From Desulfurobacterium atlanticum (lineage in GTDB: Bacteria > Aquificota > Aquificia > Desulfurobacteriales > Desulfurobacteriaceae), in assembly GCF_900188395.1 (NCBI RefSeq), contig NZ_FZOB01000001.1, positions 198,101 to 262,100 on the forward strand: a stretch of DNA of 64,000 bases, written 5' to 3'. The notes beneath the pieces are model-generated. The model was not told the origin of the DNA. It saw only the letters and a program-made list of their open reading frames with translations, and made no database searches. The first letter of the stretch is position 1; every line of letters begins with the position of its first letter. Both the position numbers and the translations under genes were made by a program. Shown here piece after piece: positions 3,735-53,754 of the stretch.

Positions 3735-4934
3735 ATGAATCTAAACGTAACTCCACTTGATTTTCAGCCAGCTAATGAGCTTGGTGTTGAGATTGTTGAG
3801 AGGAAAGGCATAGGCCACCCTGATACTATATGTGATGCTCTTGCTGAGAAACTTTCGGCAGAGCTTTGCAAGTTTTATAAAGAGAAGTTTGGTTTCGTTC
3901 TTCATCACAATGTTGATAAGGGTTTACTCCTTGGTGGAAGTGCAAGTCCAAAGTTTGGCGGTGGGGAAATTACAGCTCCTATAGAAATTTATCTTGTTGG
4001 TAGGGCTATAAAAGAGTATAAAGGGATTAAGGTTCCTGTTGAGGAGTTTGCTATTGAAGGGACGAAAGAGTGGTTAAAGGAAAATATCCATGCTCTTGAC
4101 CCTGAAAAAGATGTGAAAATTCACTGCCTTGTAAGGCCTGGTTCTGTTGATCTTGTTGATATCTATATGAGACAGCTTGAAACTGGTGTTCCCCTTGCAA
4201 ACGATACCTCTTTTGGTGTTGGTTTTGCGCCGTTTGATGAAGTGGAAAATATCGCCTTTAATGTTGAAAAGGTATTGAACAGTAAAGAGATGAAGAAGAA
4301 ATATCCTGAAATCGGTGAAGATATAAAAGTTATGTGTGTAAGAAAGAGAGATGTTATAGATGTAACGATAGCCTGTGCTTTTGTTGATAGATTTGTTAAA
4401 GATATTAACGATTACATTGAGAAAAGGGAAAATGTGAGAAAAATAGCTGAAGAGGTTGCCAGAAAGTATACAAACAGAGAAGTTCTGATTCATGTTAACA
4501 CAGGTGATGATGATAAGAGGGAAAACGTTTATATCACTGTTGCAGGAACATCAGCAGAGGCCGGAGATGATGGTGAAGTTGGAAGAGGAAACAGAGTAAA
4601 TGGACTTATTACTCCGTATAGACCGATGAGTCTTGAAGCTGCTGCTGGCAAAAATCCGATAACACATGTTGGTAAACTTTACAATATTACAGCCATGGAG
4701 ATTTGTGAAGCTGTTGTTAAGGAGATTCCGGAAGTTAAAGAAGCTTACTGCTACATTGTAAGCCAGATAGGTAAGCCGATAAGTGAGCCTCTTGCTCTTG
4801 ATGTGAAAATAAGGACAGAGGATGGCAAAGTTGAAGCTTATAAAGATAAGATAGAACCGATAGCCAGAGAGCACCTTTCAAATATTGGGAATATCTGGAA
4901 AAGACTTGTTGATGGAGAGATAGTTGTTTATTGA
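3735..4934 (+). CDS. mat: S-adenosylmethionine synthetase, archaeal type
   Basis: 399 aa; N-terminal ...[17 protein letters not shown]... characteristic of archaeal-type MAT (not bacterial MetK GHPDK fold). Archaeal-type MAT is known in Aquificae. Confidence 0.9.
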
Positions 4935-9552: not shown

Positions 9553-12500
9553 ATGTATTCAGTCGGTATAGATATAGGTTCAACAACAATTAAGTGTGTG
9601 GTTATAGATGAGAACGGAAAAATTCTGTTCAAAAGTTATGAGAGGCATGAAGCAAAACAGGGAGAAAAACTTTTAAATCTTCTTTTTGAAATAGAGAAAC
9701 GGTTTGGTAAGAAGTTTTCTCTTTTTATGACAGGAAGCGGTGCTACTATTTTTTCAAACATTCTGGATGTGAAATTCATTCAGGAAGTTAACGCTGTTAG
9801 TATAGCAGTTGAGCATTATGAAGCTGATACCAGAACCGTTATTGAGCTTGGCGGTCAGGATGCCAAAATGATTTTCTGGCAGGAGGTAAAAGGAAAAAAA
9901 AGAAAGATTACAACTATGAACGATAAGTGTGCTGGCGGAACCGGTGCAACGATAGATAGAATTGTTTCAAAGTTAAAAATACCTGTAAAAAAGGCTGTTG
10001 ATGTTAAATATGACCCTTCAAAGGTTTATCCCGTTGCTGCAAAGTGCGGTGTTTTTGCTGAAACGGATATAACAGGATTGCAGAAGTGTGGAGTTGAGCC
10101 GGATTCTTTACTTATTTCCCTTTTTGATGCCATTGTGTTACAGAATTTAACCGTCCTAACAAGGGGATACACAGTTGCTCCAAAGGTTTTGCTTCTTGGT
10201 GGTCCAAATACATTTTTTAAAGGACTGCAGGAAGCATGGAGATACCATATAGAAAATCTCTGGAAAGAAAAATCTATACCCTATTCTGAAAAAAGTGTTG
10301 TTATTCCTGAAAATTCCCAGATTTTTGCAGCCCTTGGAGCGGCAATTTACGGATTAAAAGAACCATGTATTTATAATGGAACAGAGTCTCTTTTGTCTTT
10401 TCTTTCAAAGGGTGAGGATGAACTGAAGAGAAAGACAGGAGTTGTAGGACTTTTAAAGAATAAAGAGGAACTTGAAGAGTTTAAAAAGGAAGTTTTTCGG
10501 TTTAGTTCTCGCTCGGTTGAATATACTTCTTTTTCATCTGAAAAAATAGATGTTTTTATAGGGATAGACGGTGGTTCCACGTCAACAAAAGTTGTCCTGA
10601 TAGATAAAGAAAAAAGGGTTGTGGAAAAGGCTTATACCCTCTCTTCTGGAAATCCTATAACAGATGTTAAGAGACTTTTTAAAGAGATAAGGGAAAGGTT
10701 AAAAAAGAAGGGAATTGAAGTTTCTGTTAGGGGTGTGGGTGTTACTGGATATGCCAAAGAGATGATTAAAGAGATTGTAAGTGCTGATGTGGCTGTGGTT
10801 GAGACGGTAGCACATACCATTTCTGCTCTTTCCTTCTTTAATGATATAGATGTGATTGTTGATGTAGGTGGTCAGGATATAAAGGTGATTTTTATGTCAA
10901 ACAACACTGTAAAAGATTTTAAATTAAATACTCAGTGTTCAGCAGGTAACGGATATTTTCTTCAGACAACTGCTGAAAGGTTTGGATTTTCGGTTGAAGA
11001 GTATGCAGATGTGGCTTTCAGGGCAAAGTATGTTCCTGATTTTAATTTTGGATGTGCTGTTTTCCTTGAGCAGGATATTGTTGATTTCCAGCGTCTTGGC
11101 TGGGAGCCGCACGAGATAATGGCAGGACTTGCAAAGGTTTTACCCAAAAATATCTGGCTTTATGTGGTTCAGGAGCCGAACTTAAGAAAATTCGGAAAGA
11201 GATTCCTTTTACAGGGAGGAACCCAGAGAAACCTTGCAGCTGTAAAAGCCCAGTATGATTTTATAAAAGAGCGGGTTCCTGATGCTGAGATTTTTGTTCA
11301 TCCTTTGACAGGGGAAGCCGGAGCTTTCGGGGCTGCTGTAGAAGCCATGAAGACAGAAAAAACGGTATTTCCCGGCTTTGATGTTGTAGAAAATATGGAG
11401 ATAGATGTTAAAAGTGATGAATCTACCCGTTGCACGTTCTGTTCTAATAGATGTGTAAGAACGTTTATTTACTTTAAAAATAAGCTTTACATCATAGCAC
11501 CCTGCGAAAAGGGAAGTGTTGAGACGATTGATGAACTGAAAGAGAAAATCAATGAGTTGAAGGAGATAAAGAACAAGTATCCCAATATGCAGGAAATTTC
11601 GGCACAGCTTTGTTTTAAAGAACCAACGGTAGATTTGATTTCAAATAAGTTAAGCGGAATAACCGTTGGAATGCCAAGGGTTTTAAACTTCTACTCTATT
11701 GCTCCCTTCTTTTACGGTTACTTTAAATCTCTCGGGGCAAAAGTAATTTTCTCTCCGTATACTACCGAAGAGATGATTAAAAAGGACCTTGTAGGCGGAG
11801 CCATAGACCCCTGTTTTCCGAGTAAAATAGCTCTTGCCCATGTTGTTAATCTTATAAGAAAAAAGCCAGATATTATATTTTTCCCGAAAATCTTAACCCT
11901 TCAAAAAATGATACCAGATTCTGAAGATTCAAAGGCGTGTCCTACTGTCTCTGGAACTCCTATGGTTGTTAAAGCTGCATTGACAAAAGAGAGGAATGTT
12001 TTTGCCGAAAAAGGTATAAAGTTTGTTTCTCCGATTATCCATTTTCACGATCTGGATTACCTTGAGTTTGAAATGTTTGAAACATTTAGAGAGTTTGGAA
12101 TATCAAAAGAGGAGAACAGTAAAGCTGTAAGGGGAGGGTTGTTGGCACTTAATAAATATTACAACACTTTAAAAAGTATGGGGAAAGAGATTTTGGACAG
12201 AGCTGAGCAGGAAGGTAAGATTGTAATTCTTGCCCTTGGAAGGCCTTACCACAATGACCCGGGAATAAATCACGGGATTACAGGAGAACTTCAAAAGAAA
12301 GGTTATCCCATTATTTCAGTTGATTCACTTCCTGAAAACAGAAATATCTCTTTATCTTCTGTTTATAAGAAATCTTATAGTGAGAATACCAACAGAAAAC
12401 TCTGGGCTGCACTTTATGCAGCATCCTGTCCAAACATGGCGGTTCTTGACTTTTCAAGTTTCAGGTGTGGTCCAGATGCCCCAACATACAGATTGATTGA

Positions 12501-12651
12501 AAAGATTATGGAGGAAAGTGGAACTCCGTATTTTACCTTCCATGAAATCGATGAGAATAAACCTTCAGGTGCCATAAAGATAAGGGTTGAGACGATAGAT
12601 TACTTTCTCAGGCAGTATGAAAAGAATCTGCTTAACTCTTCTCGCCGGTAA
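9553..12651 (+). CDS. CoA-substrate-specific enzyme activase, fused double BadF/BadG/BcrA/BcrD-type ATPase + DUF2229-like C-terminal domain
   Basis: 1032 aa; two ASKHA ATPase repeats (GIDIGSTTIKCVVID...; GIDGGSTSTKVVLID...), Cys cluster (CTFCSNRC) and long C-terminal domain, as in 2-hydroxyglutaryl-CoA dehydratase activator fusions. Confidence 0.8.
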   Translation: MYSVGIDIGSTTIKCVVIDENGKILFKSYERHEAKQGEKLLNLLFEIEKRFGKKFSLFMTGSGATIFSNILDVKFIQEVNAVSIAVEHYEADTRTVIELGGQDAKMIFWQEVKGKKRKITTMNDKCAGGTGATIDRIVSKLKIPVKKAVDVKYDPSKVYPVAAKCGVFAETDITGLQKCGVEPDSLLISLFDAIVLQNLTVLTRGYTVAPKVLLLGGPNTFFKGLQEAWRYHIENLWKEKSIPYSEKSVVIPENSQIFAALGAAIYGLKEPCIYNGTESLLSFLSKGEDELKRKTGVVGLLKNKEELEEFKKEVFRFSSRSVEYTSFSSEKIDVFIGIDGGSTSTKVVLIDKEKRVVEKAYTLSSGNPITDVKRLFKEIRERLKKKGIEVSVRGVGVTGYAKEMIKEIVSADVAVVETVAHTISALSFFNDIDVIVDVGGQDIKVIFMSNNTVKDFKLNTQCSAGNGYFLQTTAERFGFSVEEYADVAFRAKYVPDFNFGCAVFLEQDIVDFQRLGWEPHEIMAGLAKVLPKNIWLYVVQEPNLRKFGKRFLLQGGTQRNLAAVKAQYDFIKERVPDAEIFVHPLTGEAGAFGAAVEAMKTEKTVFPGFDVVENMEIDVKSDESTRCTFCSNRCVRTFIYFKNKLYIIAPCEKGSVETIDELKEKINELKEIKNKYPNMQEISAQLCFKEPTVDLISNKLSGITVGMPRVLNFYSIAPFFYGYFKSLGAKVIFSPYTTEEMIKKDLVGGAIDPCFPSKIALAHVVNLIRKKPDIIFFPKILTLQKMIPDSEDSKACPTVSGTPMVVKAALTKERNVFAEKGIKFVSPIIHFHDLDYLEFEMFETFREFGISKEENSKAVRGGLLALNKYYNTLKSMGKEILDRAEQEGKIVILALGRPYHNDPGINHGITGELQKKGYPIISVDSLPENRNISLSSVYKKSYSENTNRKLWAALYAASCPNMAVLDFSSFRCGPDAPTYRLIEKIMEESGTPYFTFHEIDENKPSGAIKIRVETIDYFLRQYEKNLLNSSRR

Positions 12652-12858: not shown

Positions 12859-13749
12859 TCATATTAAAGGAAGCAGGAATTTTACAACTATAAAAAGCCA
12901 TACAGGTGAGATAAGCGTTGAAAAAAATATAATTGACGCACTTATGTCAGGGTCCTGTTTAAATCTATCGCAAAGGACGAAATTTAAAATTGCTGATGGC
13001 AGCGTTGATTGGACAAAGATTGTTTTTTTAAGTAGTTCAGGGCAGGAAAATGTTTTAACTGTTAAAAATGAAATAAAGGTTCCTCCTATAAGCCTTAGTA
13101 AAGCACCTGAAATGCCTGTATGCAGATTTTCCATCTTTATGCTGGAAAGTTTTATGCCTATTGTTATAAGCATTAGCGGCATAGTTGAATCTCCCATTAG
13201 TTTTAACATCTTTTCCATACCGTCTGGTAAAGGTATGTTTTTAAAAAAGAAGGAAAAAATTACTGCATAAATGAGCGGGATTTTTAAAGTTTCAACTATT
13301 CCATCTTTTAAGCTGTCAGGATTGAGAGCTACAACTGCTATTGTAAAATGTATTATTGTTACAAGCACCATGTATGTAACCGCATATCCGAGAGCGTTTT
13401 CTCCAAAAAGAACATAAATAAGCGGAAGTCCAAGATATCCGATATTCATTATTGAGGACGAAAGTTCAAAAGCAGGGATACGCCTTTTATAGAAAATTTT
13501 TGCAAACAGGAAAGCTATGAACCAGATACTACCTATAGTTACTGTTCCATTGATAGCTATATATGTAAAACTTTCTACTGTTATGTGAAGTTTCCTGAAA
13601 GAAGAAAAGACAAGAGCAGGAGCGAGGAAGTAGAGAACAATAAAAGTTATTCCTTCTGTATCAAGTCTTTTTTTGGCTTTTCCCGCAATAAACCCGAGAG
13701 CTATTAGTATGTATATAGGGAAAATAACATTCAGTATTATTGTTTCCAT
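12859..13749 (-). CDS. AEC (auxin efflux carrier / malate permease-like) family transporter
   Basis: 296 aa, ~10 TM, N-terminus METIILNVIFPIYILIALGFIAGK typical of AEC family. Confidence 0.8.
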   Translation of the reverse strand: METIILNVIFPIYILIALGFIAGKAKKRLDTEGITFIVLYFLAPALVFSSFRKLHITVESFTYIAINGTVTIGSIWFIAFLFAKIFYKRRIPAFELSSSIMNIGYLGLPLIYVLFGENALGYAVTYMVLVTIIHFTIAVVALNPDSLKDGIVETLKIPLIYAVIFSFFFKNIPLPDGMEKMLKLMGDSTMPLMLITIGIKLSSIKMENLHTGISGALLRLIGGTFISFLTVKTFSCPELLKKTIFVQSTLPSAILNFVLCDRFKQDPDISASIIFFSTLISPVWLFIVVKFLLPLI

Positions 13750-13761
13750 GAAATTCCTTTT

Positions 13762-14499
13762 TTATAAAACAAAATGTTCTCCAAGGTAAACTTTCTTGAC
13801 TTTCTCTGAAGATATTATCTCTTCAGGTGTTCCTTCTGCAAGCACTTTTCCATGGCTTATAATGTAAGCTCTATCTATAATTCTCAGAGTTTCTCTTACA
13901 TTATGGTCTGTTATTAAAATACCGATGTCTCTTTTTTTCAACTCTTTTATAAGATTTTGAATATCTGCAACAGCTATGGGATCGACTCCTGCAAATGGTT
14001 CATCAAGAAGAAGAAATTTCGGCTTTATTGTTAAAGCTCTTGCTATTTCAAGCCTTCTTCTTTCTCCTCCTGAAAGGGTATCTGCCCGATTTTTTCTTAA
14101 ATGTTTTATTCCAAACTCTTCAAGCAGTGTTTCTGTTGTTTTCTCTATCTCTCTTTTTGGGTAGTTGTGCATCTCCATTACGGCAATAAGATTCTCTTCA
14201 ACAGTAAGCTTTCTGAAAATTGAAGCTTCCTGTGGAAGGTATGATAAACCTTTCCTTGCACGGATGTATGTTGGATCGTTTGTTATCTCTTCCTCTCCGA
14301 TGAAAACTTTTCCATCTTCAGGTTTTACAAGTCCGATTATGCAATAAAAAGTGGTTGTTTTTCCTGCACCGTTTGGCCCAAGCAAGCCTACAACCTCTCC
14401 TTCTTTTACTTTAAGAGAAACATTTTCAACAACTGTTCTACTTCCGTAAACTTTTTTAAGGTTAACTGCTGAAAGCACATTCAGGTCAGAAGTGTTCAT
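13762..14499 (-). CDS. lptB: LPS export ABC transporter ATP-binding protein LptB
   Basis: 245 aa; Walker [15 protein letters not shown] signature [15 protein letters not shown], Walker B LLLDEP; sits downstream of lptC-lptA. Confidence 0.9.
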
Positions 14500-14969
14500 T
14501 TTTCTGTTTCCTCTGGATAGATTATGGTTTTGACCTTCTGTTTTATCCCTTCAACTGTTACATTTCCGTTTCTAAATGCTACGATTCTATCTCCTATGAT
14601 CACATTTTTTCCCTGTTTTAACTGGGCGTTTCCTTTCAGTATCACTTTTTCCTGTCCAGGAAAGTATTCAAGTTCATCGCATTTACCACTTCCCTGCTTC
14701 CATCTAAATGTAACATTACCAACCATTACCGCTTTTTCAACAACCTTTCCGGTTTTATCAAAGTAAAGGTATAGTTTGTCTCCTTTTATTGTCAGGTCGC
14801 CTTTCTCAACAATAACGTTCCCGATGTATGTGGCTATCTGTTTATTTTTGTCGTAGGTAAGCTGTCTTGCTTCAACAATAAGCGGGAAATTTTCATTTTT
14901 AGCTGTTTTTCCGTAAACATTAAGTGTCAATGAAACGGCAGTGATAAAAAGTATTATCAGTTTTTTCAT
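14496..14969 (-). CDS. lptA: LPS transport periplasmic protein LptA (OstA-like)
   Basis: 157 aa, signal peptide, OstA-N beta-jellyroll repeats; between lptC and lptB. Confidence 0.75.
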
Positions 14970-15511
14970 CTTTTCTCTCCTTCTTTAAATGCTTCTCCAA
15001 TTACTGTTGAAACCCCTTGCTTAATTATAACTTTTCCGTTTCTTAAATTTATAAGGCACTGATTGCCTTTTATAGTGTAGCCGTTTTTAAAATCTATAAT
15101 ACATGGAGTTATTGATTTGAAAATTTCTGTTTTTCCGTTGAAAATGCCTTCTGTGGTTTTAGCTATAAAGTCTCTACTTTCAAGTTTTATGTTTTTTAAA
15201 ATTGTTATATTTTCTTTTTGATTGTATGTTGCTTTTTTTGCGTATATTGTAGAGTTGCTTGAGAATATTTTAAAAATGGGATCTTCAAGAATTACCACAT
15301 CTTTTCCTTTAAAAGAAGCTTTTGGAGATTTTAATGTCCATTTTTCTCCTTTTTTTGATAGTTCTGTAAATGTAAATTTCTCAACAGTTTGTTCCTTATA
15401 TCTTTTAAGCTCTTTTTTAGGGTAAGGTTCACTTTTAAGAGTGAAGTAAAGTAAGGGCAGTAAGCCTATAAGCAGAAGCAAAAGGGCTAATTTAAAGAGT
15501 TTTTCTCTCAC
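14966..15511 (-). CDS. lptC: LPS export system protein LptC
   Basis: 181 aa, single N-terminal TM anchor then beta-rich periplasmic domain; position between kdsC and lptA. Confidence 0.6.
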   Translation of the reverse strand: MREKLFKLALLLLLIGLLPLLYFTLKSEPYPKKELKRYKEQTVEKFTFTELSKKGEKWTLKSPKASFKGKDVVILEDPIFKIFSSNSTIYAKKATYNQKENITILKNIKLESRDFIAKTTEGIFNGKTEIFKSITPCIIDFKNGYTIKGNQCLINLRNGKVIIKQGVSTVIGEAFKEGEKR

Positions 15512-15975
15512 TCTATCTCACCTATTATTCTCTCTATAAATTCTCTTACTGCTCCTTTGCCACCGGGATATACGCTTACAAAGTCAACTTCTTTTTTTAC
15601 TTTCCTTACAGCGTCTATTGGTGCTCCTGAAAATCCAACTTTTTTAAGAAGAGGGAGGTCTGGAATGTCATCGCCCATATAGGCAACCTGATAGTAGGTT
15701 ATTCCTAACTTTTCTACCAGTTCATCGCACACTTTTACTTTGTCTTCTACATTTTGAAACACATAATTTATTCCCAATTCGCCGCATCTTTTTTCAACCA
15801 TTGAGGAGATACGTCCTGTTATTACAGCAAAAGTTATGCTTTTTTGTATGGCGTATTTTATTGCAAATCCGTCTTTTACGTTGAATCTTTTATACTCTCT
15901 GCCTTCACTATCGTAATATATAGAACCATCGGTCATTACACCATCAACATCAAGAACTATAAGCTTAATATCCAT
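15508..15975 (-). CDS. kdsC: 3-deoxy-D-manno-octulosonate 8-phosphate phosphatase (HAD family)
   Basis: 155 aa; HAD motif I LIVLDVDGVMTDG, ...GDDIPDL... motif IV. Confidence 0.85.
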   Translation of the reverse strand: MDIKLIVLDVDGVMTDGSIYYDSEGREYKRFNVKDGFAIKYAIQKSITFAVITGRISSMVEKRCGELGINYVFQNVEDKVKVCDELVEKLGITYYQVAYMGDDIPDLPLLKKVGFSGAPIDAVRKVKKEVDFVSVYPGGKGAVREFIERIIGEIE

Positions 15976-16940
15976 TAAAACCTCCTGCCTAAAATATCGT
16001 GAAGGTGAATTATTCCTTTAAGATTTCCTTTCTGGTCCACTACTGGTAGAACTGTTATTTTATACTTTTCCATCTTTTCTATCGCTTTTTCTGCAAACTC
16101 CTCCTCTTCAATAGTTTTTGGCGATATGGTCATAGCATCTCTTACAGGAGCTTTAATGTTTCCGTCCTTTTCAAAAAATCTTCTTAAATCGCCATCTGTC
16201 AATATACCTACAAGTTTTCCGTTTTCCACTACAAGTGTTGCTCCCACTTTTTTGGAGGATATCTCATATATGGCATCTTTTATTGATGTTTCAGGAGATA
16301 CTACAGGAACATCTTCTCCCTTTCTCATAAGTTCTTTTACCTTTGAAAGTCTTATGCCCAGTTTGCCGCCAGGGTGGTATCTGGCAAAATCTTCACTTTT
16401 AAAGCCTTTTTCAACCATTAAAGCTGCTGCAATTGCATCTCCAAGCGCAAGGGTGGCTGTTGTTGTTGTCATTGGAGCAAGACCGAGTGGACATGCTTCC
16501 CTTTCAATTCCAAGATAAAGAGAAATATCAGCAAGCTTTGCAAGTGATGATGTTGGGTCATTTGTTATTGCTATTATAGGAATTCCAAAACTTTTGATTA
16601 CTGGAATGATATTTAAAACCTCTTTAGTTTCTCCGCTATTTGAAATGGCTATTACCGTATCATCACCTTTTAGCATTCCAAGGTCTCCGTGAATTGCATC
16701 TGCTGGATGAAGAAAGAATGCTGGTGTCCCTGTGCTTGAGAGTGTTGCTGCTATTTTTTTACATATAAGTCCAGATTTACCCATACCTGTTAATACAACT
16801 CTCCCCCTGGTAGTTAAAAGTAAGTTTACTGCTTTTGAAAAGTTCTCACCTATTTTCTCTTTAAGGGATATTATTGCTTTTCCTTCTTCTTCAAGCACCT
16901 TTTTCGCTGTTTCAACTATTCTTCTTTTTCTATTTTCCAC
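15975..16940 (-). CDS. kdsD: Arabinose-5-phosphate isomerase (SIS + tandem CBS domains)
   Basis: 321 aa; SIS domain (GMGKSG...), C-terminal CBS pair. Confidence 0.9.
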   Translation of the reverse strand: MENRKRRIVETAKKVLEEEGKAIISLKEKIGENFSKAVNLLLTTRGRVVLTGMGKSGLICKKIAATLSSTGTPAFFLHPADAIHGDLGMLKGDDTVIAISNSGETKEVLNIIPVIKSFGIPIIAITNDPTSSLAKLADISLYLGIEREACPLGLAPMTTTTATLALGDAIAAALMVEKGFKSEDFARYHPGGKLGIRLSKVKELMRKGEDVPVVSPETSIKDAIYEISSKKVGATLVVENGKLVGILTDGDLRRFFEKDGNIKAPVRDAMTISPKTIEEEEFAEKAIEKMEKYKITVLPVVDQKGNLKGIIHLHDILGRRF

Positions 16941-17064
16941 TTAATACTCCTTGAATTTAAGGTATAATTTAAAAGTAGTTCTTTGTTTAGCTTTGTCAGT
17001 CTGCTTATCTTCAATCTGCAGCCTAATTTTACAATAGAAATTTTATGATGGGGTCACGAAAATT

Positions 17065-18375
17065 ATGGATATAAAACCGTTACTTCAGCAAAAGTTGACA
17101 GTTGAGCTTAAGTTAACTCCGGCTCTTATGCACAGTATGGAGTTATTACAACTTCCTATTATTGAACTTGAAAACGCTTTAAAAGATGAAATAGAAACAA
17201 ATCCTGTTATTGAAATTGAAGAACAGGAAGAAGATTCAGTGGTCAGTGTAGATAAAGAAGGTTCAGAAAGTGTATGGGATTTTGTTGTTGATGGGGGAAA
17301 TCTTGTTTTTATTGATGATTCAGAAACTTTTGATCCTCTTTCAATAAAGCCCTCTCCTGTTTCTTTAAGGGATAGACTGCTTAAGCAGGCTTCTCTTGAG
17401 TTTGATGGTAAAGATTTTGAGATTGCGAAGTTTATTATAGATAACCTTGATACGACCGGTTTTTTAAAAATTCCTTTTTCAGAAATTGCTTCAGAATTTG
17501 GTGTTTCTACTGAACAGGTTGAGAGTGTCAGGAAAAAAATATTGCGATTTGATCCTGTCGGTTGTGCTGCAAAAGATATTATTGAGTGTTTTAAAGTTCA
17601 GGCGGAAGAGATTGGTGCTCCTGAAAAATTTGTAAAAGCTATTGAGTATATTGATGAATTAAGGAAAGGAAGCTCCTTTTTTGTGAAAAAAACCGGATTT
17701 TCAGAAAAAGAGCTTGAGGAGTTTCTTTCTCTTTTAAGACATTTAGACCCTCAGCCTGGAAGTGATACTGAGACTGTAAGGATAGTGCCAGACCTTTTTG
17801 TTGGATTAAGGGATGGTAAGCCAGAAGTAAAGGTTTTAAAAACAAAAATGTTTAATTTCAGGTTAAACACCGCTTATCTTAAAACGGCAGATACTAAAGA
17901 ACTTAAAAAATATCTTATGGAGAAATATCAGAGGGCTTTAAACCTAAAGAAAGCCATAGACCAGAGAAATCAAACATTAAAATCTATTGGAGAGGTAGTT
18001 TTTTCTCACCAGATAGAGTTTCTTAAAAAAGGGGAGAAATACATTAAACCCCTTGGATATAAAGATGTGGCTGAAAAACTTTCTATTCATGAATCAACAG
18101 TCAGCAGAGCTGTTAAAGATAAGTTTGTTGAGACACCTTTCGGTGTCTATCCTTTTAAGGTCTTCTTTAAAAGAGCTGTTTCAGGGACAAGTTCTGACAG
18201 AATAAAAGAGTTAATAAAAGAGATAATAGAGAGTGAGGATAAAAGGAAGCCATTTAGTGACCTGAAGATTTCTCAGATTTTGAAAGAAAAAGGTGTGAAA
18301 GTTGCAAGAAGGACTGTGGCTAAATACAGGGAAGAGATGGGAATACCCGGAGCTTTTGAAAGGAGAGAGAGATGA
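17065..18375 (+). CDS. rpoN: RNA polymerase sigma-54 factor
   Basis: 436 aa; region I MDIKPLLQQKLTVELKLTPALMHSMELLQLP, HTH, C-terminal RpoN box ARRTVAKYRE. Confidence 0.95.
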   Translation: MDIKPLLQQKLTVELKLTPALMHSMELLQLPIIELENALKDEIETNPVIEIEEQEEDSVVSVDKEGSESVWDFVVDGGNLVFIDDSETFDPLSIKPSPVSLRDRLLKQASLEFDGKDFEIAKFIIDNLDTTGFLKIPFSEIASEFGVSTEQVESVRKKILRFDPVGCAAKDIIECFKVQAEEIGAPEKFVKAIEYIDELRKGSSFFVKKTGFSEKELEEFLSLLRHLDPQPGSDTETVRIVPDLFVGLRDGKPEVKVLKTKMFNFRLNTAYLKTADTKELKKYLMEKYQRALNLKKAIDQRNQTLKSIGEVVFSHQIEFLKKGEKYIKPLGYKDVAEKLSIHESTVSRAVKDKFVETPFGVYPFKVFFKRAVSGTSSDRIKELIKEIIESEDKRKPFSDLKISQILKEKGVKVARRTVAKYREEMGIPGAFERRER

Positions 18376-21059
18376 AATACCTTTTACCCAGGTTGAGGAA
18401 TGAATATTCAGATAGATGGCAAAAAGTGCTTGATATTGTTGAAAGTGAACCTCTGCCAAATCCTAAAAGAGCATTGATTTTTATTGATAAACTTAAAACA
18501 AAACTTGAGCATAAATTTCCCGATTTTTTTCTTGATGAAGCTTTTTTAGTGGATTTAATTTACCTGTTTTCCTATTCTCAATTTTTAGGTGATTTTTTTG
18601 TTAAATATCCAGAAGAGATAGAAAAATTAGCTTCCATTTACAGGAAAAAGTTATGCAGAAAGGATTTTCTGTTGTCTTTTCCTGAAAGTATGGATGAAAC
18701 AAACTTTAAAAAACTTATCAGATTTCATCATCGTCTTCATATGGCAAGGATTGTTCTAAGAGATATAAGGAAGCTGGATTCTCTGCTCTATCTTACAAGG
18801 GATGTTACCCTTCTTCATGATGCTATTTTAGATGCTTCTTTAAGGTTTGCAACAGGTGTAATGGAAAAGAGGTATGGAAAACCTGAAGGTAGTGGTTTTT
18901 GTATCGTTGATATGGGAAAGGCTGCCGGGTTTGAACTTAACTACTCTTCCGATCTTGATGTTATATATGTTTACTATTCAAGATACGGAAGAACCACTGG
19001 CGGGAGCTATGGAAGTCTTGATAACCACGATTATTTTTCTCTTTTTTCAGAATACATAACAAAGCTTATTACAGAAAACACGAAAGAAGGTAAATGTTTT
19101 GAGCTTGATTTAAGATTGCGACCTAACGGGACAATGGGGCCTATATGTAACGATATAGAGGCACTGGAAGAATACTATACGGCGGTGGCAAGGCCGTGGG
19201 AGAGATTTGCTCTTTTAAAATCAAGACCGTCTGCGGGAGATTTAAAAACAACAGGAATTGAATTTGTAAAGCTTATCACTCCTTTTGTTTATCGTAAATA
19301 TATAGATTTTACTCTTATAGAGGAGGTTTTGAGATTAAAAGAACTTATAAAAGCCAAGGTTTCCAAAAAGCTTTCAAAGATTGATGTTAAACTCGGTGAA
19401 GGCGGAATTAGAGAAATTGAGTTTATTGTTCAAGCGTTTCAGATAATTTTTGGAGGAAAAAATCCCCATATAAGGTCCCGTAACACTCTTATAGCCCTTG
19501 AAAAATTACGTCACTGGGGATTCCTTACAGAATCAGAGTATAGGGTGCTGAAAGAGAGTTATCTGTTTTTAAGACGTACCGAACACATGATTCAGATAAC
19601 AAATTTTCGTCAGACTCAAACTTTTCATCCAGACAGTGAAGAAGCGGAAGAACTTGCAAAGAAACTTGGCTTTGAGACAAAAGAAAAGTTTTTAAGTTAT
19701 TTAAAAGAAATTATGTCAGCAGTTCATCAAATGTTTGAAAGGTTTTTCCCTACAGAAAAGAAAAAAACACTTTCTTCTCTTACAGTTGAAGATTTGAAAA
19801 AGAAAGAATTTTTTGAGCCTGAAGAGATAAAAAGATTTATTGATTATCTTTTTAACGGAAAACTTTTATCTGCAGAAGCACAAAATCGTCTTGATATTAT
19901 GGGAGAAACATTTATAGACCTTATATTTGAGATGCCAGACTCAAGGGAGTGTATGAAAAATCTCATAACTTTTCTTGAAAAGGAAGAAGGGAAAATCTAT
20001 TTTCTGTCCTATCTGAAAGAGATAAATACTTTGAAAGTTATTTTGATGCTTCTGTCTATGAAAGAATTTTTCATAAAGAGATTTTTAAAAAATCCTGAAA
20101 TACTGGAGTATATCTTTGACCCAGAGGGTATAGAACGTGAACGGAGCATAGAAATTATAAGTAAAACTTTTGATTTAATTAAAAATGATAACCTTGCCAA
20201 GGATTTGGAAGAGGTCAGAGCGGTTTTAAGATATCTTCTTGGTAGAAGTGATGTTAAAACTTTAAACAGAGAGCTTACAAATGTTGCAGATGTTGTTATA
20301 AATAGAGTTTATAAGGATTTAAAGCCTCCTTTTCTTGTTGCTTCTCTTGGAAAGCACGGTAGCAGAGAGATGAATATAGGTTCTGACATAGACATACTTT
20401 TTATTTTTTGTGATGAGAAGGATAAAGAGAGCTATATGAATCTTATAGTAGATTTTATAGAAAAACTTAAATGTTTTGATTACGAAGTTGACACAAGGCT
20501 CAGACCTTTTGGAGAAAAGGGAGAGCTTGGTTTTACAGTAAATTATATGGAGAGTTATTTTAAAGAATCTGCACGTGTATGGGAAAGGCTTGCTTACACA
20601 AGGTTTAGAGTGGTTGCAGGGAATGATGATTTTAAAAAGCTGGTTAACTTAAAAGTGAAAAAGTTTTTGTTTGAAGAAAATCTTGACGAAAAAACTTTAA
20701 GAGAGATTTTAAAGATGAGAGAAAGGCTTGAGAAAGAACTTTCCAAAAAATCTAAATTAAAATATAGTGTAGGTGGAATTGTTGATTCTGAATTTATAGC
20801 TTATACTTATCAACTTCTGAGGAAAAAGTGGATAGGAAACGTTTATGACGTTCTTCATGAGATTGCCAGGGAAAATGCCCGATTTTCAGAGCTTCCTGAA
20901 CTTTTTATACATTTGAGAGAAGCTGAAGTGGAAAAACGGTTTTACGGGAAGTTTATCAGTTGTGAAAATAAACTTTCTGATATTATGGAGAAAAACAGAA
21001 AGCTTTATCTGGAGTTTTTTGAATGGATAAGACCCTTAGTGAATACAAACGGGAAATAG
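18372..21059 (+). CDS. glnE: Glutamine synthetase adenylyltransferase/adenylyl-removing enzyme (GlnE-like, two nucleotidyltransferase domains)
   Basis: 895 aa; two Pol-beta-like NTase motifs (GKAAGFELNYSSDLDVIYVY and GKHGSREMNIGSDIDILFIF), each followed by GlnE-type helical domains; start overlaps rpoN stop (ATGA). Confidence 0.75.
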   Translation: MKYLLPRLRNEYSDRWQKVLDIVESEPLPNPKRALIFIDKLKTKLEHKFPDFFLDEAFLVDLIYLFSYSQFLGDFFVKYPEEIEKLASIYRKKLCRKDFLLSFPESMDETNFKKLIRFHHRLHMARIVLRDIRKLDSLLYLTRDVTLLHDAILDASLRFATGVMEKRYGKPEGSGFCIVDMGKAAGFELNYSSDLDVIYVYYSRYGRTTGGSYGSLDNHDYFSLFSEYITKLITENTKEGKCFELDLRLRPNGTMGPICNDIEALEEYYTAVARPWERFALLKSRPSAGDLKTTGIEFVKLITPFVYRKYIDFTLIEEVLRLKELIKAKVSKKLSKIDVKLGEGGIREIEFIVQAFQIIFGGKNPHIRSRNTLIALEKLRHWGFLTESEYRVLKESYLFLRRTEHMIQITNFRQTQTFHPDSEEAEELAKKLGFETKEKFLSYLKEIMSAVHQMFERFFPTEKKKTLSSLTVEDLKKKEFFEPEEIKRFIDYLFNGKLLSAEAQNRLDIMGETFIDLIFEMPDSRECMKNLITFLEKEEGKIYFLSYLKEINTLKVILMLLSMKEFFIKRFLKNPEILEYIFDPEGIERERSIEIISKTFDLIKNDNLAKDLEEVRAVLRYLLGRSDVKTLNRELTNVADVVINRVYKDLKPPFLVASLGKHGSREMNIGSDIDILFIFCDEKDKESYMNLIVDFIEKLKCFDYEVDTRLRPFGEKGELGFTVNYMESYFKESARVWERLAYTRFRVVAGNDDFKKLVNLKVKKFLFEENLDEKTLREILKMRERLEKELSKKSKLKYSVGGIVDSEFIAYTYQLLRKKWIGNVYDVLHEIARENARFSELPELFIHLREAEVEKRFYGKFISCENKLSDIMEKNRKLYLEFFEWIRPLVNTNGK

Positions 21060-21643
21060 TTTCATATATTTCTCAAACGTTCCCGAATTTACAGTTTCGG
21101 GGAAGTGCAGATATTAAGTTGCTTGAAAGATGGTATTATCTTGGAATTCCTCACACATTTATTTTGAAATATGTTACGGAGATGGAAGATAATCCTCCAA
21201 AAAGTTTAAAGGAACTTCAAGAAGTAATAGAGAGAAGATTCAAGGCGGATAAGAAGAAAGAAAAAGAACATTTAAATATGCTTTTTAAAAGCTACTCTTC
21301 TCCGCAGGAAAGACTCAGGTATCTTTATGATATTTTGCAGGCTATTCTTATTTCAATATCAGTGGATAACGTTTTAATTCTTGAAAAACTAAAAGAACTT
21401 GAAAATTGTGATGTTGAGACTGTAGAAGTTGAACTTGAGAGATTTGAAGAACTTTTTTATAAGTTTTTGTTTGAACATTCCAGGGATAAAGATGAAATTT
21501 TGCTTGAAGCTGTTAAAGAACTTGAGCCTTACCGCTTTTACTGGGATGAAAAAATTTATAAAATGACTTTGAAAGCTTTGATAAAAAAATTATTGAAGGA
21601 AAGGTATGAAATTCCTGACTTCACAACCGTTATTAGCAGTTGA
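21023..21643 (+). CDS. Hypothetical protein (helical, Lys/Glu-rich)
   Basis: 206 aa ORF overlapping the glnE 3' end by 37 nt; no recognised motif. Confidence 0.4.
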   Translation: MDKTLSEYKREIVSYISQTFPNLQFRGSADIKLLERWYYLGIPHTFILKYVTEMEDNPPKSLKELQEVIERRFKADKKKEKEHLNMLFKSYSSPQERLRYLYDILQAILISISVDNVLILEKLKELENCDVETVEVELERFEELFYKFLFEHSRDKDEILLEAVKELEPYRFYWDEKIYKMTLKALIKKLLKERYEIPDFTTVISS

Positions 21644-22304
21644 TTATCCGGCTGGAAGAGAAGATATAGTAAAAAAAAGAATTGAAAAACTTGAAAGATA
21701 TGGCATATCGCTGGAAAAGTTTATTGCCAAAGGTTACAGAGGGACAGTTTTTTCAGGAAAAATGTTTCCTCCCAGTTACTTTTCAACACCTATTAAAGTT
21801 GCTGTAAAGTTTGCAAGAAGTGATGTTGATAAAGTAAATTTTCTGCTCAAAGAAGCAGAAATTCTTGAGTATCTTTCCAATAATGATTTTGTTCCTGCTG
21901 TTTATTTTTATGATAAAGATTTTCTTGTTATGGAGTTTGTGGATGGAGAGCCTTTTGATAGTAAGACTTTTCTGCACAGGAAAGATTTTAAAGAGATTGT
22001 TTCCGTAATTTTAGAAAAATGTTACTTGATGGATGAACTTGGAGTAGAACACACAGAACTTAAAGGCAAGGATCACATAGTTGTTAATAGATTTTCAGTT
22101 AAATTTATAGACTTTGAGAGTGCAAAGTTTGCAAAATCTCCGAGGAATCTGTTTCAATTTTTAGGTGCCCACCTTTTTAATTTACCTGATGATGCTTTGG
22201 AAAGAAAGGGTATTAATGTTGAAAGAGTAAAGAAAGGTATGAAAACGTATAAGGAAAACAGAGAAAAAGGCTTGAAAGAGGTTTTAGAAGGTCTAAATCT
22301 TTAA
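21606..22304 (+). CDS. Atypical protein-kinase-like fold protein (RIO/Bud32/Kdo-kinase-like)
   Basis: 232 aa; VAVKFAR (VAIK-like Lys), catalytic-loop-like HTELKGKDHIVVN, metal-binding IDFESA (DFG-like). Overlaps previous ORF by 38 nt. Confidence 0.5.
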   Translation: MKFLTSQPLLAVDYPAGREDIVKKRIEKLERYGISLEKFIAKGYRGTVFSGKMFPPSYFSTPIKVAVKFARSDVDKVNFLLKEAEILEYLSNNDFVPAVYFYDKDFLVMEFVDGEPFDSKTFLHRKDFKEIVSVILEKCYLMDELGVEHTELKGKDHIVVNRFSVKFIDFESAKFAKSPRNLFQFLGAHLFNLPDDALERKGINVERVKKGMKTYKENREKGLKEVLEGLNL

Positions 22305-22399
22305 AGAACTTTAAGATTTTTCCTATTTCATTTTCTTTATCATGTTAAAATTTCTTTTGTTTTAAATCTATAAATATCTTTACTTCATAGGAGGAGGTT

Positions 22400-23464
22400 T
22401 TGATGAAAGTTGCTGTTTTTGGTTTTGGTAACCAGAGTTATTACAGAGATGTTATAAATATGGAAAGCCTACTTGGAGGGGAGCCACCTTTTGGTGGTGC
22501 AAGAATGGCTATGGAGTTTGCGCAGGCTGGCTATGAAGTTGTTCTTTCTGACCCACATATATCAACTATTGATGCGTCTCTTATTGAAAAGGTTAAAGCA
22601 GCTGGAGTTGAATTGACTACCGATGATGCTGTTGCTGCAAAAGATGCAGAAGTGGCCATTTTATTTACTCCTTTCAGAAGTGGCATTTCAATGAAGATAG
22701 CAGAGAGGATAATTCCACATCTTGGGAAGGGTGCTGTAATCTGCACAACATGTACAATGCCGGTTCTTGTTTTTGAAGTGGCAGTTAAAAAGACGCTCTT
22801 TATGGAAGATAGAGAAGATATCGGCTTCTCAACAATGCATCCGGCCGCTGTTCCTGGGACCCCTAAGCATAAACATTATTTTATAGCAACAAATGAACTT
22901 CTTGAGGATCATATTGTTGAACCTGAGCAGATTGAGAAGTTGAAAAAACTTGCCCAGGATACAGGTAAAACACCCTATCTTATACCGGCTGAGCTTGTGT
23001 CAGCTATGGGGGATATGGGAGTTGTTGCTACATCTGCAGCTTTTGCAAGTGCCCTTGAGTACTATGCTGTTTCCAGGAAATATTTGAAAACCACAAAAGA
23101 GATGACAGAATTTCAGCTTGCTCAGGCGTTTCAGGTAATGGCAAGTATTATTGCAAAGTATGGCCTTGAAGGTCTTGTAAAATTTATAAATTCTGAAGCT
23201 TTGAAAGTTTCTTTAAGTTCTATGCTGTATGATGAGAAAATTCAAAAGGTGGCTTTCTCTTCTATGGAGGCTCTTGAAAATATTAGGGCTATATCTGAAG
23301 ATTTACCGGAGAAAACAAAAATTTTTACTAAATATGAACCAACCTTTCTATCTGCTCCATCTCCAATGCTTATATCTTACATAGAAGAGCTTGCCGGTGA
23401 AGATGTTGCAAAGGGTATTATCAGAGAGGCTTTAAGGAAACTTTACGAAGGAAATAAATCGTAA
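22400..23464 (+). CDS. hmdII: Hmd-family protein ([Fe]-hydrogenase paralog, HmdII-like)
   Basis: 354 aa. By-eye alignment to methanogen Hmd: KVAVFGFGNQSYY ~ KIAILGAGCYRSH; EVVLSDP ~ EVVVSDP; GAVICTTCTMP ~ GAIVTHACTIP (FeGP Fe-ligating Cys aligned); FSTMHPAAVPGT ~ VSFHPGCVPEMKG; IPAELVSAMGDMGVVATSA ~ MPANLISPVCDMGSAVTA. Confidence 0.7.
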   Translation: MMKVAVFGFGNQSYYRDVINMESLLGGEPPFGGARMAMEFAQAGYEVVLSDPHISTIDASLIEKVKAAGVELTTDDAVAAKDAEVAILFTPFRSGISMKIAERIIPHLGKGAVICTTCTMPVLVFEVAVKKTLFMEDREDIGFSTMHPAAVPGTPKHKHYFIATNELLEDHIVEPEQIEKLKKLAQDTGKTPYLIPAELVSAMGDMGVVATSAAFASALEYYAVSRKYLKTTKEMTEFQLAQAFQVMASIIAKYGLEGLVKFINSEALKVSLSSMLYDEKIQKVAFSSMEALENIRAISEDLPEKTKIFTKYEPTFLSAPSPMLISYIEELAGEDVAKGIIREALRKLYEGNKS

Positions 23465-23479
23465 GAGGGGGAAATTGAT

Positions 23480-23860
23480 ATGCCAAGTAAAAGAGAACTA
23501 CTTGAAGAAGTATTGGCCAATTTAACTGATGCTCTTGGTGCTGATATTTTTGGGGCTCTTGTAGCCACTCCAGATGGTCAGGTTGTTGTATCAGCAATGC
23601 TAAAAGGTGGCCTTAGTGCTGAGAAGCTGGCAGCTATGGCTGCTGCAGTTGTTGGAACGTCTGAAAGATTGTCAAAAGTTGTTGAGGCAGGAGAGTTTAA
23701 TGATGCTCTTATAAGGTGCTCCAGTCAAAACATTTTAACTAAAAGGGCTGGAAGAAGAGCTATTCTTGTTTGTGTTGTTAAATCGGATGCAAATGTTGGT
23801 CTTTTAAATATAGAAGTTGAAGACGCGATTGATAGAATAAAGTCAATTCTTGGAGTTTAA
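23480..23860 (+). CDS. Roadblock/LC7 (MglB-like) domain protein
   Basis: 126 aa; alpha-beta-beta-alpha-beta pattern, GALVATPDGQVVVSAM and RAILVCVVKSDANVGLL typical of Roadblock/LC7 family. Confidence 0.7.
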   Translation: MPSKRELLEEVLANLTDALGADIFGALVATPDGQVVVSAMLKGGLSAEKLAAMAAAVVGTSERLSKVVEAGEFNDALIRCSSQNILTKRAGRRAILVCVVKSDANVGLLNIEVEDAIDRIKSILGV

Positions 23861-23888
23861 CTTTTTATGGATTGATGCCGATTTTAAA

Positions 23889-23917
23889 GGTGGCTTTAAA
23901 GCCGCCTTTTCTTTTTG
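23889..23917 (+). terminator. Rho-independent terminator after roadblock gene
   Basis: GGUGGCUUUAAAGCCGCC hairpin (one G-U) followed by ttttctttttg. Confidence 0.6.
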
Positions 23918-23964
23918 CTTTTAAATAAATGAGGCTGTTTGAAAAATGGCTATGAACTTTAAGA

Positions 23965-32423: not shown

Positions 32424-33241
32424 TAGAAATTGCCAATCCTTTTATATTTTTTAAATACGGCATTTTTCAGAAGGCAATTGTTGCTTCCCTGCTTTCAGGA
32501 ATTTTGTGTTCTATTGTAGGTGTTTATGTTTACTTGAGAAAGATGACATTTATTGGTGCTGGTCTGGCTCATATAGCTTTTGCAGGTATCTCTTTTGGAT
32601 TGCTTGTTGGCTATTTTCCGATGCTGTGGGGGTTTATTTTTACTTTATTGGCGGCGATTATGGTTTGGTTTTTCAGTTATAGAGGAAAACTTACAGCTGA
32701 TTCAACTGTTGGAATTCTGTTTGCTACAAGTATGGGACTTGCTGTTTTCCTTCTCAGTATTTCTGGAAAGTATCGTGCTGAAGCTTTATCTTATCTTTTT
32801 GGAAGTCCTTTAACAGTAAACTGTATTGATATAGTTTTTCTTTTTCTTACCTGTGTTCTGCTTTTAATACTTGTAGTTTACTACTACAGAGATATTTATT
32901 TGACTATTTTTAGTGAAGAGATTGCTAAGGCTTCCGGCATTTCAACGGAAAAAATCACTTTTGTAGCGACATTTTTTATTTCTGTAGCTGTAGTAAGTGC
33001 AATGAAAGCTGTTGGTGCTCTGCTTGTTTTTTCTCTTATTGTTGTGCCGCCGGCAGCTGCGTATGAGATAGCTGAAAGTTTTACTGGAATGATACTTTTT
33101 TCGGTTTTATTTGCTTCTTTTTCTGTTGTTTTAGGGTTGTTCTTTTCTTTCTTTTTTAATGTTCCTTCTGGGTCAATGATTACTTTTGTAGCTTTTGCAG
33201 TATTTGTGTTATCATATATAAAAAAATGGAGAAGCTTATGA
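32420..33241 (+). CDS. ABC-3 family metal (Zn/Mn) transporter permease (ZnuB/MntB-like), orphan
   Basis: 273 aa, 8-9 TM, ABC-3 pattern; no adjacent ATPase or substrate-binding protein gene. Confidence 0.8.
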   Translation: MIEIANPFIFFKYGIFQKAIVASLLSGILCSIVGVYVYLRKMTFIGAGLAHIAFAGISFGLLVGYFPMLWGFIFTLLAAIMVWFFSYRGKLTADSTVGILFATSMGLAVFLLSISGKYRAEALSYLFGSPLTVNCIDIVFLFLTCVLLLILVVYYYRDIYLTIFSEEIAKASGISTEKITFVATFFISVAVVSAMKAVGALLVFSLIVVPPAAAYEIAESFTGMILFSVLFASFSVVLGLFFSFFFNVPSGSMITFVAFAVFVLSYIKKWRSL

Positions 33242-33753
33242 AAAGAAGATTGAAAGTTCTTGTTGCAGGAGCTTTTGACTCTGGAAAGACGACGTTTGTT
33301 AAAACTTCCAATTCTGAAGGCTATGATGGAGTTGAAGTTTCCAATTTTGATGTAGAGGAGTTGAAAGAGATAGAAGGCACCACAACAGTTGGGCTTGATA
33401 TTTCCAATGTAAAAATTGGAGATAAAGAGTTTCTCCTTGTAGGACTTCCAGGTCAGAAGCGGTTCTCTTTTCTGTGGGATACCCTTGGTAGCGATTTTGA
33501 TGCAATAATAATTCTCCATTCTGCCGAACATCCTGTTGAAGAGACAAAGTTTTATATAGACTTCTTTTCAAAGACTTCAGCATGGGAAAAGGCAAAGAAA
33601 TTGATAGTGCTTACAAAAACAGATCTTTATCCAGATTTTGATAAACAAAAACTTGCATCTTTTGGTATTCCCGTTCTATCTTGTGACCCAAGGAATAAAG
33701 AGGAGGTTCAGGGAGTGCTTCAGTTTCTGTATCAGATTGCACTCCCCCGTTAA
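33226..33753 (+). CDS. MglA-like Ras-superfamily small GTPase (COG2229-type)
   Basis: 175 aa; G1 GAFDSGKTTF, G3 GLPGQKRF (Asp-less as in MglA), G4 LTKTD. Confidence 0.7.
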   Translation: MEKLMKRRLKVLVAGAFDSGKTTFVKTSNSEGYDGVEVSNFDVEELKEIEGTTTVGLDISNVKIGDKEFLLVGLPGQKRFSFLWDTLGSDFDAIIILHSAEHPVEETKFYIDFFSKTSAWEKAKKLIVLTKTDLYPDFDKQKLASFGIPVLSCDPRNKEEVQGVLQFLYQIALPR

Positions 33754-53753: not shown

Positions 53754-53754
53754 C

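Follow-up and report, generated by a model that had tools for sequence, protein, structure and literature searches.

An hcg-unlinked HmdII-type [Fe]-hydrogenase paralog and its Roadblock/LC7 neighbour in Desulfurobacterium atlanticum

The bacterium Desulfurobacterium atlanticum carries a gene related to that of Hmd, the [Fe]-hydrogenase of methanogens. We analyzed this gene, hereafter hmdII, within a stretch of 64,000 nucleotides (nt) of contig NZ_FZOB01000001.1; "the window" denotes this whole stretch, and all coordinates are positions within it unless they follow the number of a comparison locus (L001 and so on). The evidence assembled below makes it likely that hmdII encodes a second HmdII paralog, of a lineage that we term clade A, which is unlinked to the cofactor-synthesis (hcg) genes, binds the iron-guanylylpyridinol (FeGP) cofactor and a C1-folate by homology, and is likelier to serve in binding or sensing than in bulk catalysis. 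The scan for open reading frames (ORFs) delimited the gene as 22400-23464 on the plus strand, which corresponds to 354 amino acids (aa) if translation started at the TTG at 22400. However, a strong ribosome-binding site (RBS) read from the sequence, GGAGGAGG at 22390..22397 (+), is followed by ttttgATG and lies just 2 nt before this TTG and 5 nt before an ATG at 22403. Since this spacing suits the ATG, unlike the TTG, the coding sequence of the clade A hmdII gene is set to 22403..23464 (+; 353 aa plus stop), an assignment that also draws on family scores, a structure match and database identity. The length of 354 aa given in the initial annotation therefore has to be corrected to 353 aa, which is also the length in the NCBI record WP_089322257.1 / SNR61808.1, with which the window protein is 100% identical.

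A gap of 15 nt separates the hmdII stop from the next gene and contains a further RBS read from the sequence (GAGGGGG, 23465..23471, +). This gene (23480..23860, +) encodes a Roadblock/LC7 domain protein of 126 aa (Pfam Robl_LC7, 41.1 bits; cut-off 23), and it is followed by a hairpin resembling an intrinsic terminator, which the terminator scan placed at 23886..23919 (+) and which combines a 10-bp stem, including 5 G-C pairs, with a T-run. The RNA fold of 23858-23925 has an energy of −16.8 kcal/mol (z = −3.0), and none of 200 shuffled sequences was as stable. On account of the two RBSs, the short gap and the hairpin, hmdII and the Roadblock gene read as a bicistronic unit closed by a terminator-like structure. 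Upstream lie a gene for a kinase-like protein of 232 aa (21606..22304, +), whose Pfam matches to RIO, Bud32 and Pkinase are at or below their cut-offs, and orf206 (21023..21643, +), which is without a family match and shares 37 nt with the 3' end of glnE and 38 nt with the kinase-like gene. The gap of 98 nt ahead of the ATG at 22403 is AT-rich. Sites found by a sigma-70 scan were no commoner than in shuffled sequence and none fell within 22305-22399; alignments of the 5' flanks of hmdII in clade A or in clade B were too diverged and, the RBS aside, yielded no shared promoter or operator motif. Transcripts that read through from glnE into this unit are conceivable. No second hmd copy was found within the window, and scans of the whole 64 kb for tRNA genes and Rfam families (gathering threshold) gave zero matches.

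The product is an HmdII-type [Fe]-hydrogenase paralog, as the initial annotation had proposed, and belongs over its full length to the HmdII/HmdIII (hmd_rel) family; the gene is correctly named in RefSeq. The NCBIfam model NF009208 (H(2)-dependent methylene-H4MPT dehydrogenase-related protein; H4MPT, tetrahydromethanopterin) scored 353 bits (cut-off 258) and was matched end to end, residues 2-350 of 354 covering profile positions 1-341 of 342. The hmd_rel model TIGR01724 scored 311.2 bits (cut-off 167.2), and matches to both Pfam HMD_N (37.1 bits; cut-off 27) and Pfam HMD (79.5 bits; cut-off 23.1) reveal the two-domain architecture. When solved structures were searched with phmmer, the HmdII of Desulfurobacterium thermolithotrophum (6HUY/6HUZ) came out on top (447 bits, 57% identity), followed by the structures of Methanocaldococcus jannaschii HmdII (MJ1338; 264 bits) and then by the N-terminal domain of HmdIII. 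Identity to MJ1338 is 41-42% over the full length.

Two other assignments were rejected. The TIGR01723 equivalog model of true [Fe]-hydrogenase Hmd scored 69.7 bits against a cut-off of 341.45 and matched residues 67-293 alone. In the HMMER alignment to the true Hmd 6HAC, the motifs named in the initial annotation are all present and aligned (window protein/6HAC: GAVICTTCTMP/GAIVTHACTIP, MHPAAVPG/FHPGCVPE and AMGDMG/PVCDMG). Nevertheless, only residues 66-309 could be aligned, at 19-22% identity, and the N-terminal 65 residues remained unaligned, so that the strong resemblance to Hmd across the whole length that had been claimed was overstated; similarity over the full length is to HmdII. A generic Rossmann-type or 6-phosphogluconate dehydrogenase is likewise a poorer description, since NAD_binding_2 reached 18.1 bits (cut-off 21), HIBADH 15.4 bits (cut-off 291.6), and the template modelling (TM) scores to generic Rossmann dehydrogenases did not exceed 0.41.

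The latter values come from Foldseek comparisons with an AlphaFold2 model that was computed from a 40-sequence alignment and has a mean predicted local distance difference test score of 89.4 and a predicted TM score of 0.85. The model has the HmdII fold: it superimposes with a TM score of 0.94 and a root-mean-square deviation of 1.7 Å on FeGP-reconstituted D. thermolithotrophum HmdII (6HUY/6HUZ), and with TM scores of 0.91-0.92 on M. jannaschii HmdII bound to FeGP or methylene-H4MPT (4YT2/4YT4/4YT5), while those to true Hmd are 0.60-0.64. Goldman et al. equated C176/T177/H201 of Hmd with C127/T128/H154 of MJ1338 (PMC2739858), and Cys117 (Cys118 in the 354-aa numbering), Thr118 and His146 of the window protein occupy these columns. 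The Cys-Thr...His active-site cluster is thus intact, and the multiple alignment bears out the earlier by-eye view that the Fe-ligating Cys is retained: Cys117, encoded at 22751..22753 (+), aligns with Cys176 of M. jannaschii Hmd and C127 of MJ1338. This Cys is conserved in at least 90% of the sequences in clade A, in clade B and among archaeal HmdII proteins each. Across all 40 aligned sequences, including the window protein, 27 columns are invariant, and 65 columns hold the same residue in at least 90% of the clade A, clade B and archaeal sequences. Elsewhere in the HmdII family the Cys has been replaced, namely in the clade D protein P0022 and in the product of Methanothermococcus L002 8721-9749, the first of two tandem hmdII-like genes, where STYNVP and TTYNICP, respectively, take the place of TTCT... 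Such losses make its retention in clade A more meaningful.

To place the window protein among its relatives, homologs were collected from 5.8 billion proteins at E ≤ 1e-10, which yielded 87 clusters, about 23 of them of bacterial type, and a neighbor-joining tree was bootstrapped with 200 replicates. Clade A (the window type), clade B (the D. thermolithotrophum type) and clade D were each recovered in 200/200 replicates and clade C in 197/200, and the bacterial types were jointly set apart from archaeal HmdII/III in 200/200. The branching order among clades A to D is unsettled (A+B, 73/200; B+C+D, 105/200). Mean identity amounts to 75% within A, 81% within B, 58.6% between A and B, and 40% between A and archaeal sequences. 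The window protein was placed in clade A and thus outside the clade B of Dester_1504, the D. thermolithotrophum HmdII, with which it is therefore not orthologous. Five genomes contain one copy of each clade, namely those of D. atlanticum, D. indicum, strain TC5-1, GCA_054029275.1 and GCA_054017255.1. There are 23 fixed differences between the two clades, among them N10, Q11 and R34, where clade A has the archaeal residue. At position 120, three residues past the Fe-ligating Cys, clade A has Pro, as does true Hmd (CTIP), whereas clade B and archaeal HmdII have Ser. Within clade A, where dS is saturated, the ratio of nonsynonymous to synonymous substitution rates (dN/dS) is 0.08-0.15, and these low values indicate that the gene is maintained by purifying selection. 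For D. thermolithotrophum, no clade A cluster was present among the homolog clusters and one Roadblock cluster only was found, so that clade A is apparently missing from the organism of the 2019 study. A third lineage of bacterial type, clade C (51-53% identity), was seen at L010 8785-14249 of GCA_054016915.1; there, hmdII is flanked by a divergent hcgB-C gene, hcgA, hcgG and hcgF in a Pel polysaccharide neighbourhood, without a Roadblock gene. Bacterial HmdII and hcg genes may therefore reach past the Desulfurobacterium clades A and B.

The two lineages differ in their genomic surroundings. The window shares the order rpoN, glnE, orf206, kinase-like gene (~230 aa), hmdII with four other clade A loci (L007, L011, L012 and L013/L001), the kinase-like homolog occupying the same position in L001, L007, L011 and L012. 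Downstream of the clade A hmdII-Roadblock pair lies guaB in the window and purB or carB at the other loci. We regard orf206 and the kinase-like gene as context to clade A hmdII, which does not imply a functional link; neither showed homology to the genes upstream of clade B hmdII. Clade B hmdII stands at the head of a cofactor-synthesis cluster, the order at D. thermolithotrophum L005 being hmdII, Roadblock, hcgA, hcgB-C fusion, hcgD, hcgF, hcgE, hcgG; L005 and L008 both have hcgA, D, E, F and G in this cluster. By comparison, the Roadblock gene of the window is followed by the terminator-like hairpin and guaB, without hcg genes. Indeed, as the initial annotation had noted, no hcg genes were found in the window, neither by family scans of its ORFs (NCBIfam or Pfam models on non-overlapping ORFs of at least 100 aa, the region 12859-18375 being covered by Pfam assignments from locus L004) nor by tblastn with D. 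thermolithotrophum HcgA, HcgB-C, HcgD, HcgE, HcgF and HcgG (best E-value 0.13). A radical-SAM ORF at 62346-63284 was considered as HcgA and rejected because it is not HcgA-like.

Outside the window contig, however, the D. atlanticum assembly encodes a second HmdII, WP_089323637.1 (clade B), and an HcgB-HcgC fusion, WP_089323634.1, by virtue of which this genome counts among those with hcg genes. Both proteins are encoded on a contig of 41,147 bp. Their accession numbers belong to the SNR/WP_0893 series that also contains the window protein and are three apart, which fits the order hmdII, Roadblock, hcgA, hcgB-C. From these accession numbers and the shared contig we infer that the clade B hmdII of D. 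atlanticum is linked to hcg genes and that the remainder of the cluster is present. In the sibling genome GCA_054029275.1, both paralogs are located on one contig, with hcgA-G behind the clade B copy. Because the same assembly encodes the HcgB-HcgC fusion next to the second HmdII, the question whether the cofactor is made in D. atlanticum, which the initial annotation had raised, appears to be largely answered. In Table 1 of PMC7460606, citing Watanabe 2019, M. jannaschii Hmd reconstituted with FeGP from D. thermolithotrophum is listed with 42 U/mg; the genus therefore makes the cofactor.

These observations bear on two alternative explanations. One is that the clade A protein serves as a carrier, store or scaffold, which holds the Hcg-made cofactor or a precursor, either to protect it or to deliver it to clade B HmdII. 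FeGP is bound by archaeal HmdII, for which a scaffold function had at one time been put forward (PMC3087415, PMC7460606), the C-terminal domain of HcgG resembles the N-terminal domain of HmdII (PMC10100467), and the window protein keeps all residues that are conserved in the family. We nonetheless consider this role very unlikely, because hmdII is dispensable for Hmd maturation in Methanococcus maripaludis and a scaffold function was excluded structurally, according to the summary in PMC7460606, because the clade A gene is unlinked to hcg genes in every genome seen, and because D. thermolithotrophum makes FeGP although a clade A copy was not detected there. The other is that FeGP has been abandoned altogether and that a Rossmann-type protein now carries another nucleotide ligand or moonlights in binding a protein or tRNA. 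The missing link to hcg genes and the weak NAD_binding_2 similarity would agree with this, as would the report that Hmd paralog 1 of M. jannaschii binds prolyl-tRNA synthetase (PMC2739858). Yet the NAD_binding_2 score stays under its cut-off, the Cys117 cluster is strictly conserved in clade A although other lineages lost the Cys, clade B is present in each of the clade A genomes that allowed a check, and hcg genes stand beside clade B wherever the locus or the HcgB-HcgC protein was retrieved, which together render a loss of the cofactor highly improbable.

The activities listed for relatives are informative as to what a cofactor-bound clade A protein might do. Table 1 of PMC7460606, citing Watanabe 2019, gives 8 mU/mg for D. 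thermolithotrophum HmdII with FeGP and 5 mU/mg for M. jannaschii HmdII, and the same table lists 350-1100 U/mg for Hmd against these 5-8 mU/mg of HmdII proteins. Only D. thermolithotrophum HmdII is credited with tetrahydrofolate derivatives as substrates, in the title of the Watanabe 2019 paper that PMC7460606 cites. It is conceivable that the clade A protein is a catalytic isoenzyme, an FeGP-dependent, H2-forming methylene-tetrahydrofolate dehydrogenase that carries real flux where clade B is idle, for example at another H2 or nickel level. The intact Cys-Thr...His cluster and HmdII fold would permit this, D. thermolithotrophum HmdII turns over tetrahydrofolate derivatives according to the table just cited, and the Pro that follows C-T-M in clade A resembles the Pro after C-T-I in true Hmd. 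Folate enzymes are also encoded in the region: purU, for formyl-tetrahydrofolate deformylase, is located at 951-1805 (−; 415 bits), which points to a folate-based C1 metabolism in the organism and bears on the folate ligand proposed for HmdII, and a gene for 5-formyl-tetrahydrofolate cyclo-ligase is found near clade A hmdII in L007 and L011. Nevertheless, such an isoenzyme appears unlikely to us in view of the gap between milliunits and hundreds of units per milligram in PMC7460606, the low TIGR01723 score and TM scores relative to true Hmd, and the statement that archaeal HmdII and HmdIII do not catalyse the reaction (PMC3087415).

The second conserved feature of these loci is the Roadblock/LC7 gene, which lies directly 3' of hmdII at all examined Desulfurobacterium loci of clades A and B (window 23480-23860; L005 11104-11484; L008 11103-11483; L007 11066-11446). 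In Methanothermobacter, a Robl_LC7 ORF of 117 aa (75 bits) starts 5 nt after hmdII (L003 11032-11385). Roadblock identity across A and B loci is 75-86%, compared to ~57% for the HmdII partners. Since dS between both copies of one genome is 1.47, and hence saturated, recent gene conversion was rejected as the cause of this high identity, which rather reflects constraint. In a neighbor-joining tree of Roadblock proteins (computed without bootstrap), the A-linked copies are nested inside the B-linked Desulfurobacterium copies, which hints at a duplication of the hmdII-Roadblock pair within the genus.

Roadblock orthologs with 66-70% identity also occur in D. crinifex, Balnearium and Thermovibrio, for which zero HmdII matches were obtained. 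At the two of these loci that were retrieved, D. crinifex L016 6795-10044 and Balnearium L014 6809-10027, the Roadblock gene comes after an ORF of 113-116 aa and an ODP-type metallo-beta-lactamase gene and is convergent to genes for a small Ras-like GTPase (Arf 25.3 bits, cut-off 22.3; SRPRB 24.6), a ~158-aa protein and a ~228-aa protein with a faint longin match. In D. thermolithotrophum (L005 8286-9953), hmdII, Roadblock and hcg follow directly after this module of GTPase, 158-aa and 228-aa protein genes. The D. crinifex locus and the D. thermolithotrophum hmdII-hcg locus have common flanks, consisting of RapZ, NAD kinase and CofH-like genes on one side and abhydrolase, CtpB and transketolase genes on the opposite side, and this match suggests that a Roadblock/GTPase locus already existed when hmdII plus hcg were inserted there. 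The window itself encodes a small GTPase-like protein of 175 aa (33226-33753, +; Pfam Arf 26.3 bits, cut-off 22.3) that shares 44% identity with the GTPase encoded upstream of the D. thermolithotrophum hmdII; its gene follows a znuB-like permease gene and lacks the partner genes for the 158-aa and 228-aa proteins. A specific version of a sensing role would be that clade A HmdII and its Roadblock partner form a sensor pair that conveys the state of FeGP, H2 or methylene-folate to a prokaryotic Ras-like GTPase switch. We consider this quite unlikely. If it were true, the position behind rpoN, glnE, orf206 and the kinase-like gene would tie H2/C1 status to nitrogen control, and the question of what HmdII paralogs do, which dates back to 2000, would find a concrete answer in signalling.

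Taken together, the data lead us to favour, as the probable explanation, a clade A HmdII that binds cofactor and folate without carrying a large flux. By homology to the 57%-identical D. thermolithotrophum protein, FeGP would be bound with its GMP moiety in the N-terminal Rossmann-like domain and its iron on Cys117, and methenyl- or methylene-tetrahydrofolate would occupy the inter-domain cleft. The cofactor would be supplied by the hcgA-G cluster that accompanies the clade B paralog in another part of the genome. Turnover with H2 is likely to be very slow, in the mU/mg range as for D. thermolithotrophum HmdII, and the role of the protein may be the binding or sensing of the C1-folate, H2 or FeGP state, possibly relayed via the Roadblock partner. 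Scaffold and sensor proposals have been made before for HmdII and HmdIII (PMC3087415, PMC7460606). Our preference for binding or sensing over bulk catalysis is a weak one, derived from the mU/mg activities of relatives and the conserved Roadblock pairing. If the Roadblock link is functional, it points to signalling and not to catalysis.

Several points weigh against this explanation. Ligand binding by clade A is argued from homology to the clade B protein of D. thermolithotrophum, and the ligand preference of clade A could differ, because it is a separate lineage with 23 fixed differences that include N10/Q11/R34 and Pro120. Likewise, the sensing role and the Roadblock link are argued from gene adjacency only, and the Roadblock orthologs in relatives without an HmdII match indicate that Roadblock is not dependent on HmdII. 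With respect to cofactor supply, HcgB-C is the sole hcg product recovered directly from D. atlanticum, whereas hcgA, D, E, F and G are inferred, and hcg genes were adjacent to clade A hmdII in no locus examined.

The remainder of the window agrees with the bacterial context that the initial annotation had ascribed to hmdII. Besides purU it contains glmS, a gene for an archaeal-type methionine adenosyltransferase, pilT/pilC, lptA/B/C, kdsC and a kpsF-type gene, followed by rpoN and glnE, as well as guaB, genes for a P-type ATPase, ppa and phoU, hemA/B/C/D and pilB, and fabF, rnc, maf, ispF, fabZ, lpxA, gatB and mnmH. The methionine adenosyltransferase (3735-4934, +) scored 557 bits with NF003366 (PRK04439-derived; cut-off 435) and is an enzyme that we take to be of the archaeal type. 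A fusion protein of 1032 aa (9553-12651, +) combines two BcrAD/BadFG-type activase ATPase domains with DUF2229; it also matches methanogenesis marker 15 under the cut-off (103 bits) and is kept at the same position in all clade A loci. A CbiM/NikL/CbiQ/CbiO-type energy-coupling factor transporter for nickel or cobalt, with an adjoining DUF4198 protein, is encoded at 51125-54537 (−). The use of [Fe]-hydrogenase in methanogens is tied to nickel limitation, and through nickel limitation this transporter may be relevant to HmdII. The flavoprotein and Fe-S subunits of a fumarate reductase/succinate dehydrogenase are encoded at 55347-58872 (−), and the third subunit of this enzyme is of the HdrB/SdhE type (CCG-domain), in place of a haem membrane anchor.

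Much of what surrounds the window protein is already published, including the HmdII family, its occurrence in Desulfurobacterium, structure, cofactor and folate substrates. Bacterial HmdII and FeGP of D. thermolithotrophum were reportedly characterised by Watanabe et al. in 2019 (Angew Chem 58:3506), who are said to have crystallised and assayed the HmdII. The folate ligand that the initial annotation had considered is what experiments found for this clade B sister paralog. In the literature consulted here, we did not find a description of a second, hcg-unlinked lineage, of its rpoN-glnE context or of the Roadblock pairing. Interest in bacterial HmdII and the bacterial FeGP-biosynthesis cluster has come chiefly from biotechnology, where they offer a way of obtaining the [Fe]-hydrogenase cofactor from bacteria. 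Most of the Desulfurobacterium genomes examined have two HmdII lineages, of which the studies cover the hcg-linked one only.

Compared with the known systems, the window protein is closest to D. thermolithotrophum HmdII (Dester_1504; 6HUY, 6HUZ), which comes from the same genus, shares family, length, fold and the Cys motif AVICTTCTM, and is also encoded next to a 126-aa Roadblock/LC7 gene. The two proteins nevertheless belong to clades that are separated by full bootstrap support and 23 fixed differences, and the window gene stands behind rpoN, glnE, orf206 and the kinase-like gene, whereas that of D. thermolithotrophum is followed by hcgA-G. Archaeal HmdII and HmdIII (MJ1338, MJ0715; 4YT2, 4YT4, 4YT5, 4YTE, 6HUX) are homologous over the full length and have in common with clade A the Cys-Thr...His cluster, residues N10, Q11 and R34, and, in Methanothermobacter, the adjacent Roadblock gene; they differ in that the bacterial types form one separate clade and in small insertions around residues 92 and 136. 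The host of the window protein presumably uses folate rather than H4MPT. True Hmd (TIGR01723; 2B0J, 3F47, 6HAC) has the same two-domain plan and the same motifs at the Fe-ligating Cys, HP..VP and DMG, but it is set apart by low identity, model score and structural similarity, by the unaligned N-terminal 65 residues, and by activities of which HmdII-type proteins reach at most the mU/mg range. Conserved and under selection, with the iron-binding Cys retained and a Roadblock gene of its own always alongside, clade A HmdII therefore lends itself to comparisons that address the role of HmdII paralogs, also in methanogens.

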